The notes under the pieces: model-generated
Seen by the model: the letters and a program-made list of their open reading frames with translations, nothing else
Told to the model about the DNA's origin: nothing
The model's database searches: none
Translations under genes and position numbers: made by a program
Shown here: piece after piece, positions 1,050-5,824 of the stretch
Numbering within the stretch: position 1 is the stretch's first letter
How the letters are laid out: each line of letters starts with the position of its first letter
Origin: a virus
DNA: 46,722 nt
Reading direction: 5' to 3' (one strand)
Virus genome (UHGV): UHGV-0200285

Positions 1050-2077
<1,028 letters not shown>

Positions 2078-2190
2078 GGATATTTATCAGGATTTATCGG
2101 CTTCAAATCCCTGGATATGTTAAATCTTACCTCACCAGTGATGGGCACTGGCGGGAGGAGGATGTCAATCTGATAAACACAGAGGTGACT

Positions 2191-2451
2191 ATGGATTACA
2201 CAAATCTACCAAAACAAACTTTTGCTGATTTAATCGCACTCAGGCAAGCAGTCGTAGCCCTAATCAACTTGTTGCCGGAGAAGGAAAAGGAATTAGTTAA
2301 AGCGCTTCTTAACAGAACTGCCGCCGATTTTTCATCATATCCACTGACAGATGACCTTGCGGACCTTCCTGAATTAATTGCAGCGTCCGCCATTAAGCTT
2401 ACTGAAGAGATTTACCCTCCTCAAAAATCTTCACAAAATTCCTGCGAGTAA
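2191..2451 (+). CDS. hypothetical small acidic protein, antisense to the lysis operon
   Basis: ORF 2185..2451; ATG at 2191 preceded by AGAGGTG RBS; converges on and overlaps the 3' end of the 183-aa gene by ~50 nt. Confidence 0.35.
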   Translation: MDYTNLPKQTFADLIALRQAVVALINLLPEKEKELVKALLNRTAADFSSYPLTDDLADLPELIAASAIKLTEEIYPPQKSSQNSCE

Positions 2452-2950
2452 CTTCAATGCAATAATCGTAAAACGCCGCAAACTGCTCATCGCGGCGTTT
2501 TTTTTCATCTTCAGAAGGAATCAGCACCGACAATTTTTTATTCAGATCAGCGACGCTGCCCTCCAGTTTTTCAATGGGCGATTCAATATCATCTTTTTCT
2601 GACCGCAATGCCGTCGGTGGCGTCTTCAGAGAACCAGTAATTCTTCCCGGTAGCTTTCCTTTGTAGGTTATCCACACATTCTGCGCCTCTAAAATTATGG
2701 GGCGCTTTTCCGGCGACTGCTCATCCCCTTCACATAACCCGGCTGCAACTTCCAGGAAGACCTGTCTGATGCTCCTTCTGGCTGCTGCCTCATAAAACTC
2801 CAGCGCGGCACCTTCAACACGGTCCAGCGAGATGTCCAGGTCAAAAATTTCACCGTCAAAGCGTTTTTTGTCCCTTAATGCTACAGTTACCGCAACTTTA
2901 TTCTCAAAATTGCGGATCCCTTTCACAATCAGTTCATAGTTTTGTGTCAT
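2399..2950 (-). CDS. hypothetical protein inserted between holin and endolysin (lysis-cassette cargo)
   Basis: ORF 2399..2971; ATG at 2950 (MTQNYELIV...) with GGGGAGAG RBS, 5 nt after holin stop; soluble, charged, no TM segments. Confidence 0.6.
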   Translation of the reverse strand: MTQNYELIVKGIRNFENKVAVTVALRDKKRFDGEIFDLDISLDRVEGAALEFYEAAARRSIRQVFLEVAAGLCEGDEQSPEKRPIILEAQNVWITYKGKLPGRITGSLKTPPTALRSEKDDIESPIEKLEGSVADLNKKLSVLIPSEDEKKRRDEQFAAFYDYCIEVTRRNFVKIFEEGKSLQ

Positions 2951-2954
2951 TGAA

Positions 2955-3170
2955 TTACTCTCCCCGTGCAACCTTACGCTTGTCTTCTTTAATCTTGAAA
3001 TAAAGGTTTGTCAGGTACGTCAGCAAGCCAAATACCAGACTACCCAGCACACCGATTGCAGCCCACTGTGACGGAGTTACTTTATCGAGTAACTGCAATG
3101 CCCAGAAACCAGCATTACCAGCCGATGTGCCATAGGCGATACCTGTTGTTAACTTATCCATTGATTTCAT
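2955..3170 (-). CDS. class II pinholin (S21-like) with dual-start motif
   Basis: 71 aa, near-identical from memory to phage 21 S21 / E. coli EssD; starts MKSMDK (Met1-Lys-Ser-Met4 dual start); two TM helices. Confidence 0.85.
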
Positions 3171-3640: not shown

Positions 3641-3922
3641 TAATATTGTGGTACTTTTTGTGGGAGTCATCCACTTACGCACTTTGTTTTGCTATGCCAG
3701 CAGTTAGCTTCTGCTGTAAAACTATTCATGCAGCAAACCTGCACTTCACCACAATGGTTAGCATACTTTTCCTGATTAAGTTATTGCCAAATATGCTGGC
3801 CATTGTTTCATGTATTGGACCTCCTTACTATTTATTAAAGAGATCCAATATTCACCACTCTGTCTGTATCTCCACTCAGGCATCAGCCTTCTTCGTTATC
3901 GTATACAGACAAACTATGAATT

Positions 3923-4138
3923 TTAATCAGTAATTATGACATTTGCTGCTGCAGGACCTTTAGCACCACTCTCTACAGAGAAGGTAACCTTTTGACCTTC
4001 AAATAAGGTTCGATAATTATCATTCTGAATCGCAGAAAAATGCACAAACACATCTTTACTACCATCAACAGGAGAAATAAAGCCAAAACCTTTATCAGCG
4101 TTAAACCATTTTACTAAACCAGTCATTTTATTTGACAT
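3923..4138 (-). CDS. cspB: cold-shock protein CspB-like
   Basis: 71 aa, [23 protein letters not shown]...; RNP1/RNP2 motifs (KGFGFI, VFVHF). Confidence 0.85.
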
Positions 4139-4437
4139 TCTACATTCCTTAACTTGAGCCTTTCGGCATAAATGGCTTGTATAACAGAAACGACTTCGTA
4201 CTTAATTGGAGAGACTCAAAGAAGGAATAAGTGAATAACACCTGAAATGAGAACTGCTTTAGTAAACTACTTCGTATATCGTCTGTTCTTCAAACCGACG
4301 CAATCATTAACGCATAGTTGAACATATGAAGCAATGTTTATTTTAGACATCCAGCCATCTTCAACCCCATCAAAAAACTATAGCTTTCTTCAGGAACGTG
4401 TGTATAGTGCGCCAAGTTATCAGTATTAAGGAATTTT

Positions 4438-5071: not shown

Positions 5072-5824
5072 TTATCTCGTCACCTTTCTCAATTGTGCTT
5101 CAGCGTAAGATTCCTCCTGCCAGCACTTTGTAACCAGTTTATCAATGACATTTGCATATCCTTTATACCACTGATAATCACTCAGGTCCGGTACCAGCTT
5201 CTGGACATGATGCCGCGCCAGTGTGGTTGGTAAACGACTAAACCGTTTTCCATTGCAACGCCCACAAATCTTATAAACAGGTGTGCCATGAAGCCGGGTC
5301 CTTTTTTCATCCAGGACAATACCTTTACCCTTACACCCTCTGCACGCTGTGCTGACTTCTCCCTTACCATGGCAATGCTGACATAGTTCCTTCACCCACT
5401 CTTCTTTGATAACAGATTCCCCGCTTCTGGAGTGTTTCACCACTTCGCGCAATACATTATGAAATCCAGTACCAGCACAATGCTCACAACGAGCCTTACT
5501 TGCCGCAGACCTGGAATAATCAGCAAAGGCAAAATTCACAAGGTAAGGAATAATCTGTAGCCGGGTTTCTTCACTCAATTTATTCAATGTCGGGTTATCC
5601 AGTGCCATCGCGTAATTGAGCAGACCTTCAATCGCAAACTGAGGATCCTGAACACCAACTTTTGCCAGGAATAAGGCAAACCCAAGCGGTGCTTTCGATT
5701 GCACCATCCCCTGCGCAGCCATCACATCCGTAATCGTTAAACCACCAGAGCCTGTCGCCGGTGCGTCATCACTCAATTTTGGAGATTTTGGGGAGTAATA
5801 TTTTGGTAAGGCTTCAAGGTTCAT
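5072..5824 (-). CDS. late-gene antiterminator Q
   Basis: 250 aa; Cys-rich zinc-binding C-terminal half (CEHCAGTGF, CQHCHGKG, CRGCKGKG, CGRCNGK); position between nin-like genes and lysis cassette; resembles QuuQ-type Q from memory. Confidence 0.75.
   Translation of the reverse strand: MNLEALPKYYSPKSPKLSDDAPATGSGGLTITDVMAAQGMVQSKAPLGFALFLAKVGVQDPQFAIEGLLNYAMALDNPTLNKLSEETRLQIIPYLVNFAFADYSRSAASKARCEHCAGTGFHNVLREVVKHSRSGESVIKEEWVKELCQHCHGKGEVSTACRGCKGKGIVLDEKRTRLHGTPVYKICGRCNGKRFSRLPTTLARHHVQKLVPDLSDYQWYKGYANVIDKLVTKCWQEESYAEAQLRKVTR

Follow-up and report, generated by a model that had tools for sequence, protein, structure and literature searches.

The first 7 kb of the window analysed here, a stretch of 46,722 nucleotides from the virus genome UHGV-0200285, correspond to the part of a lambdoid E. 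coli prophage, similar to Qin and phage 21, that serves late regulation and lysis. Identical DNA is present in several complete E. coli genomes, and DNA of 98% identity in the isolated phage 2H10. The region is organized as follows:

5072-5824, minus strand: Q-type antiterminator
3923-4138, minus strand: cspB
2955-3170, minus strand: S21-type class II holin of 71 aa, essQ-like (PF04971, 'Bacteriophage P21 holin S', E 1.1e-33; essQ in identical RefSeq loci)
2958-2965, minus strand: Shine-Dalgarno sequence GGGGAGAG of the ydfR-family gene, within the end of the holin gene, read from the sequence
2399-2950, minus strand: YdfR-family gene of 183 aa, stop included (PF07041 DUF1327, phrog_2091)
2191-2451, plus strand: ORF86, gene of an acidic, predicted three-helix protein of 86 aa (WP_001306174.1, phrog_2572)
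2182-2187, plus strand: Shine-Dalgarno sequence GAGGTG of ORF86, 3 nt before the ATG, read from the sequence
1544-2077, minus strand: lysozyme, rrrQ-like (PF00959)
1050-1547, minus strand: Rz (DUF2514)

The plus strand of the lysis region carries cspF, ynfU and ORF86. The cold-shock genes cspB, cspF and ynfU lie between antiterminator and holin, as in Qin, and the cspB leader (3860-4299, minus strand) strongly matches the cspA thermoregulator of Rfam (RF01766, 156.7 bits). As the first-pass annotation had recognized, a 183-aa gene with its own ribosome-binding site is located between holin and lysozyme; its coordinates are right, and 4 nt separate the holin stop codon TAA (2955-2957) from its ATG (2950-2948). 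ORF86 converges on this gene and overlaps its 3' end by 53 nt (2399-2451). Upstream of the lysozyme start no recognisable Shine-Dalgarno sequence was found, and an AT-rich repeat (ATTTATC-AGG-ATTTATC) lies directly before the gene, in the region 2077-2125. The 'SAR' character attributed to the lysozyme is suggested by an N-terminal Ala/Leu-rich stretch.

The 183-aa protein matches PF07041 (DUF1327) with 141.9 bits (gathering cut-off 25), its residues 1-112 aligning with model positions 1-92/93, and phrog_2091 matches it over the full length (183/183). The suspicion that a DUF-type family of cryptic prophages is involved was therefore justified. A DUF1327 gene is found between holin and lysozyme in every relative examined, namely K-12 Qin, Stx phages, 2H10, PhiR5_1, PhiR12_2, Chlobot, Salmonella prophages and metagenomic loci, and the Salmonella prophages have it there despite a different holin family. 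Of 5426 complete E. coli genomes, 4349 contain DNA of the ydfR N-terminal part, some of them as many as 10 times, and about 80% of complete genomes of this species have YdfR-family genes in prophage lysis cassettes, often in several copies. Judged from these sequence comparisons, the 183-aa gene is the one normally found in the holin-lysozyme slot of phage-21/Qin-type lysis cassettes, and not the inserted cargo that it was first taken for.

The closest described relative is YdfR of K-12 Qin (P76160). Both proteins belong to the DUF1327 family, both genes are positioned between holin and lysozyme (essQ and rrrQ in K-12), and 82% of residues are identical over aa 1-74. The K-12 protein, however, has only 103 aa, the stop codon of its gene overlaps the rrrQ ATG and there is no convergent gene, whereas the protein in the window has 183 aa with a different C-terminal tail and the lysozyme gene starts 321 nt past the ydfR stop. 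By length, YdfR homologues group into 103-116, 168-211 and 268-296 aa. All of them share residues 1 to about 112 and then differ, and thus the family is modular beyond this point. In the window the two parts are:

2615-2950, minus strand: N-terminal DUF1327 part, aa 1-112, from the Pfam match; three strands and a helix, followed by a low-confidence linker
2399-2614, minus strand: C-terminal 'tail' module, aa 113-183, modelled by AF2 as a helical hairpin (H123-143/H147-182) with low confidence

The AF2 model of the N-terminal part predicts strands E5-14, E18-27 and E34-43 and helix H50-73; the model of the whole 183-aa protein is of low confidence (pLDDT 55.6). Homology to the short YdfR forms ends at about 2614. 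The long forms (268/296 aa, phrog_1085; Stx2 phage 86 orf5) share the N-domain, the linker and the first tail helix with the window, and their DNA is homologous to it down to about 2460. In place of the ORF86 cassette they have a C-terminal domain of about 120 aa. The C-terminal end of the 183-aa protein (…RRNFVKIFEEGKSLQ) recurs in forms of 168, 176, 183 and 211 aa, including those of Salmonella. A further DUF1327 fusion form of 243 aa (loci L115-L119) is paired with an ORF86 homologue of the P0141 type.

In RefSeq, PGAP calls ydfR a pseudogene ('incomplete; missing C-terminus') in identical loci:

2616-2951: RefSeq pseudogene call, equivalent to NZ_CP027579.1 C6996_RS27050; CFT073 and HS are annotated likewise

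This label is wrong, because the 183-aa frame is open, its end is conserved in E. coli, E. albertii, E. fergusonii and Salmonella, phrog_2091 matches it from end to end and the exact protein is encoded on 822 contigs. The 183-aa form is also present in the isolated phages 2H10 and PhiR5_1. Probably the call arises because PGAP compares with reference proteins of 296 aa or of the short type. The corrected gene model removes a recurrent RefSeq error in which an intact gene is labelled a pseudogene.

The convergent 86-aa acidic ORF at 2191-2451 is confirmed as well, and it belongs to a conserved family rather than being a chance ORF. Its product has a pI of 4.57 with 13 D+E against 8 K+R residues. 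A search of 1.8 billion representative proteins recovered true homologues of 89-93 aa with 41-57% identity, the family alignment has 27 invariant columns, and indels in it comprise whole codons. Shine-Dalgarno sequence and start codon are at the same aligned position in the diverged loci L023, L026 and L113. Among close haplotypes, the non-overlapping part of ORF86 has 22 variable sites, distributed 6/3/13 over codon positions 1/2/3. On the other strand lies a shadow frame, a 65-aa ORF at 2196-2393, and pN/pS is 0.47 in the ORF86 frame and 0.40 in this antisense frame; the codon-position and pN/pS tests fail to separate the two since their third positions coincide. A codon-usage likelihood trained on 23 genes of the window did not discriminate between them either. 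However, amino acid replacements have a mean BLOSUM62 score of +0.83 in the ORF86 frame versus -0.75 in the shadow frame, and changes at codon position 2 are fewer than at position 1 in three lineage comparisons (19/16, 26/13 and 20/15 for positions 1/2). The shadow ORF has no Shine-Dalgarno sequence, its ATG is changed to TTG in E. coli HS and it is absent in L023/L026. AF2 models ORF86 with three helices (H8-25, H30-48, H59-74; pLDDT 74) and predicts disorder for its 12 C-terminal residues, which are encoded within the overlap. This comparative evidence favours translation of ORF86, which we regard as very likely.

The PhiR5_1 and PhiR12_2 records label the ORF86 protein as DUF1823, but the match is below the PF08853 threshold of 25 bits (highest score 13.2 bits, lowest E 0.024 among 9 family members). 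A phmmer match to a 975-aa TPR/CHAT protein was rejected as repeat-driven, and a resemblance to the 90-aa ORF of Chlobot was rejected on BLASTP, which found no similarity. A scan of GTDB genomes returned one locus only.

Downstream of ORF86, the plus strand could fold into a structure that is at the same time part of the ydfR reading frame:

2470-2505, plus strand: predicted hairpin with a 10-bp stem, a 12-nt loop and a T8 end, candidate intrinsic terminator of ORF86

The hairpin (dG -14.6 kcal/mol, z -1.8) begins 19 nt past the ORF86 stop codon, and on the ydfR strand its DNA codes for KKRRDEQFAAF. The terminator scanner skips it because the 12-nt loop exceeds the 8-nt limit. Relative to the 296-aa type, where a convergent gene is absent, there is a 15-nt in-frame insertion (TCATCGCGGCGTTTT) in the window as well as one substitution, and together these create the 3' arm of the hairpin and lengthen the T run. 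The insertion is lacking in the long YdfR forms, and the hairpin is specific to the forms that bear ORF86. It is kept in both diverged lineages, where the U-tract is weaker, and in L113/L026 the stem has a compensatory G-C to A-T change (CGCCGC/GCGGCG becomes CGCCACC/GGTGGCG) that alters two amino acids of the partner protein. A second hairpin with a T run (GCGCCTCTAAAATTATGGGGCGCTTTT) is located within the DUF1327 coding region (2683-2712).

The borders of the variable DNA are sharp. In blastn against the 296-aa type, homology extends from the holin down to about 2460 and is then absent until about 2083, just before the lysozyme start. Unrelated ORFs occupy the same slot in other phages, and all are preceded by a common block:

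2084-2459, no strand assigned: swapped ORF86 cassette (ORF86 and leader), bounded by the blastn break points, no DNA homology to the 296-aa YdfR type
2094-2121, plus strand: candidate weak promoter of the cargo gene by our own reading, TTATCG (2094-2099), 16 nt, TATGTT (2116-2121)
L007 1301-1573, plus strand: Chlobot 90-aa ORF (phrog_2411), same slot, strong ribosome-binding site, unrelated to ORF86
L120 1329-1643, plus strand: Stx2 phage 86 orf6, 104 aa, same slot, strong ribosome-binding site, unrelated to ORF86

Within the cassette DNA, ORF86 has a GC content of 42.6%, against 45-51% in the neighbouring genes, and it occurs in 436 complete E. coli genomes (about 8%) compared with 4349 for ydfR. 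The possibility that the 183-aa ORF is a frameshifted 296-aa gene and ORF86 its antisense remnant was rejected, since 2084-2459 has neither DNA nor protein homology to the C-terminal domain of the 296-aa form. On this pattern of breaks and gene content, the swappable element is the convergent ORF86 and not the 183-aa gene. The idea of a variable slot thus survives in part: the variability is real, but as far as the alignments tell it is confined to YdfR C-terminal to residue ~112 and to the convergent gene, and does not concern the 183-aa gene as a whole.

The upstream block (GGATATTTATCAGGATTTATCGG…CCCTGGATATGTT) is common to the cassettes of ORF86, Chlobot and Stx2 phage 86, and the sequences diverge right after it. 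Because unrelated plus-strand ORFs follow the same block, the site upstream of the lysozyme start can be regarded as a recurrent antisense cargo slot. The block includes the candidate promoter, of which a relative without cargo has CAGGTT in place of TATGTT, and it also forms the 5' flank of the lysozyme gene. The scanner found no sigma-70 consensus promoter upstream of ORF86 and scored TTATCG-N16-TATGTT below its threshold; the block may act as a weak promoter of the cargo genes. In Chlobot, the sequence GCGCCTCTAAAATTATGGGGCGCTTTT follows the 90-aa cargo ORF and might terminate transcription of it. The ORF86 leader contains a small hairpin, CCAGTG-ATGGG-CACTGG (2135-2151), and the diverged leaders of L111 and L023 retain a motif like it (GTGGTGGGACACTG); the consensus fold of the leader consists of a small weak hairpin only (-3.3 kcal/mol).

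Pairing of ORF86 with the YdfR tail was followed in 91 usable IMG/VR loci with an ORF86-family gene. Except in a few contig-cut or disrupted loci, a convergent partner with an overlap of 53-59 nt is present, and the hairpin occurs in nearly all of the loci. As the locus sample is dominated by near-identical copies, these counts represent only three independent lineages. The pairing is kept across about 50% protein divergence. The partner is a DUF1327 fusion of 173, 174, 176, 183 or 243 aa or, in 5 loci, a stand-alone gene of 73 aa. This latter gene, found in some Salmonella prophages, is positioned between Rz and the terminase genes, with a start codon ATG that overlaps the stop codon of Rz (L111, L023-25). 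Its product shares the pattern EQKRRDE…RN.QKLKSTQQG with the YdfR tail (pairwise BLASTP E 2e-4), and outside the overlap its substitutions are distributed 9/3/11 over the codon positions, position 2 being the slowest. A tblastn search of the phage collection with the 73-aa protein gave no match. Taken together, tail and ORF86 appear to be a co-inherited two-gene unit that occurs at two genomic positions.

In the window, the part of the tail outside the overlap (2452-2614) has variable sites at codon positions 1/2/3 in the ratio 6/6/15, a hand tally of the haplotype alignment that leaves out the misaligned L004, and this points to a coding-type substitution pattern. Most of the invariant tail residues, however, lie under the hairpin or under the third helix of ORF86. 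Conservation of the tail is therefore ambiguous, and it could partly reflect constraints of the other strand rather than a partnership of the proteins.

Pfam, NCBIfam, PADLOC and PDB sequence searches, and Rfam for the interval, assigned no function. Lambdoid morons such as lambda bor are independent promoter-ORF-terminator units that are often antisense to the late operon. ORF86 resembles them in its patchy presence in homologous cassettes, its orientation antisense to the late genes, its lower GC content and in having its own Shine-Dalgarno sequence and hairpin-T8. Its presence or absence among homologous phages with sharp break points at about 2084 and 2459 is that of a moron, and the ORF86-like gene of L111 occupies the post-Rz position, like lambda bor. 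Unlike bor, ORF86 shares 53-59 nt with the 3' end of a late gene and has its terminator candidate inside the frame of that gene. It is further always linked to one particular partner, it encodes a soluble, acidic, helical protein instead of a lipoprotein, and its promoter is only a candidate. A second likeness is to the lambda OOP RNA, a short convergent transcript that controls the 3' end of cII by antisense. ORF86, too, would give a short convergent transcript that is antisense to the 3'-terminal part of a phage gene over about 50-100 nt, but in contrast to OOP this predicted RNA includes the gene of a conserved protein. Searches of Pfam and PHROG gave no functional match to antiholin or lysis-inhibition families (T4 RI/RIII, P1 LydB), and ORF86 is on the strand opposite to the holin. 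The only experimental findings retrieved are on K-12 YdfR, for which two-hybrid and co-purification experiments showed binding of residues 1-72 to the N-terminal (catalytic) half of RNase E (PMC13232886, 2026). The K-12 protein also co-purifies with RNA, and its overproduction, in the N-domain form, causes no growth defect and barely changes the transcriptome (PMC13232886). RNase E binding by the YdfR protein of the window is plausible, because it is 82% identical over the K-12 binding stretch.

We favour, with a probability of roughly 0.6, the explanation that the locus holds two real genes, a modular resident late gene ydfR and a moron-like, independently made ORF86 that acts with or on the YdfR tail. 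Accommodated in the late operon, the YdfR/DUF1327 gene would be transcribed together with S, R and Rz, and its product would consist of a constant N-terminal domain, a linker and a replaceable C-terminal part, here a helical tail. ORF86 would be moron-like cargo directed against late transcription, with its own ribosome-binding site and probably its own weak promoter near the lysozyme start. Its hairpin-T8 terminator would have been built into the ydfR frame by the insertion of five codons. The transcript would then have its ends near 2128 and 2505 and would be antisense to the final ~107 nt of ydfR coding sequence. It seems plausible that ORF86 is expressed without the late operon, the lysogen being one possible setting, and that it serves as partner or regulator of the YdfR tail module or of the mRNA for it, by protein binding and/or by antisense pairing at the 3' end. 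Many working cassettes are devoid of the tail-ORF86 pair, and hence the pair is accessory and not a core part of lysis. The sequences show that both reading frames are conserved, that the cassette is exchanged as a whole and that tail and hairpin accompany ORF86 throughout, also where the tail is a separate 73-aa gene. The anatomy of the region is well supported, and the functional link between YdfR and ORF86 is what we infer from it.

Somewhat unlikely, in our judgement, is that ORF86 is an independent moron with a role in lysogenic conversion, exclusion or anti-defence and without any functional tie to YdfR. As by-products of reading through cassette and terminator, YdfR-183 would have acquired its final ~20 residues and the tail its apparent conservation. 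This fits the use of the same slot and upstream block by unrelated cargo ORFs, the post-Rz position of the ORF86-like gene in L111, antisense to the late genes where lambda bor sits, the coincidence of invariant tail residues with hairpin and overlap, and the predicted disorder of the 12 C-terminal ORF86 residues. A mere by-product is difficult to reconcile with a partner frame that is open in every lineage, with the 6/6/15 pattern of the tail outside the overlap and with a pairing that persists over ~50% protein divergence. Nor would it account for a stand-alone 73-aa gene whose ATG overlaps the Rz stop codon and whose codon position 2 evolves slowest (9/3/11).

A more far-reaching version of a functional partnership, which we consider unlikely, would make YdfR a late adaptor that docks on RNase E. 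The DUF1327 domain would bind the catalytic half of the enzyme and carry interchangeable C-terminal effector modules, and tail and ORF86 would form a mobile pair of effector and inhibitor or regulator. The ydfR and ORF86 mRNAs would pair at their 3' ends, and the effector would be silent in the prophage until late transcription overrides this block. As a 73-aa gene after Rz, the tail would also work with ORF86 when detached from DUF1327.

That ORF86 is untranslated, and the 183-aa gene the sole protein gene, seems quite unlikely to us. Its conservation would be a shadow of selection on the other strand, or the element would act as an antisense RNA or promoter that damps read-through into the lysozyme gene. 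Indeed, pN/pS is equally low in the antisense frame (0.40 vs 0.47), codon usage is uninformative, the scanner found no consensus promoter, and a promoter opposing late or read-through transcription in front of an exported lysozyme could make sense on its own. Against this stand the strong, correctly spaced Shine-Dalgarno sequence that is conserved with the start codon in diverged lineages, the antisense 65-aa ORF having no Shine-Dalgarno sequence and no conserved start, the replacements that are conservative only in the ORF86 frame, the lower number of changes at position 2 than at position 1, the whole-codon indels and the confident helical AF2 model.

The first-pass annotation had also considered a toxin/antidote-like pair. 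In such a module the YdfR tail or the 73-aa protein would be harmful and ORF86 would neutralise it. We give this little credence. The two genes are strictly co-inherited and move together between two genomic positions, one partner is acidic, and convergent genes that share a terminator recall type I systems. However, PADLOC, Pfam and NCBIfam yielded no match to a toxin or antitoxin family, and the genes converge instead of forming the co-directional operon of type II systems. In type I terms, neither product is a small hydrophobic peptide, both being soluble (GRAVY -0.11 and -0.47), and the antisense partner is a conserved protein gene. Overproduced K-12 YdfR caused no growth defect, though this form lacks the tail found here (PMC13232886).

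The RefSeq reading, a ydfR pseudogene truncated by insertion of a foreign gene, agrees with the PGAP flag and with the replacement of the C-terminal domain of the 296-aa form by the ORF86 cassette, but it is highly improbable in view of the intact frame with its conserved end, the end-to-end phrog_2091 match, the gene in the isolated phages 2H10 and PhiR5_1 and the coding-type substitutions in the tail.

Both genes belong to families that are already catalogued as of 'unknown function', and on present evidence this is not a new kind of system. New are the corrected gene model, the cargo slot with its shared upstream block, the terminator-forming insertion within a coding frame and the conserved pairing of tail and ORF86 in two genomic positions. 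The unit of tail and ORF86 offers a handle for experiments on accessory genes of the lysis region, including the link to RNase E; if it is only a moron, it represents routine prophage mosaicism.

Two minor observations concern the surroundings of these genes. In some E. coli strains, IS3-family elements are located in or beside ydfR/ORF86 and truncate one or the other gene (L009 1492-2693; L011 1401-2558). In Salmonella prophages with the ydfR-ORF86 module, ParE/HTH, ParE-like/ParD-like and HicA/HicB pairs adjoin the lysis cassette:

L012 1559-2259: gene pairing as named above by the lysis cassette, Salmonella prophage
L014 982-1516 and 5078-5715: gene pairs as named above by the lysis cassette, Salmonella prophage
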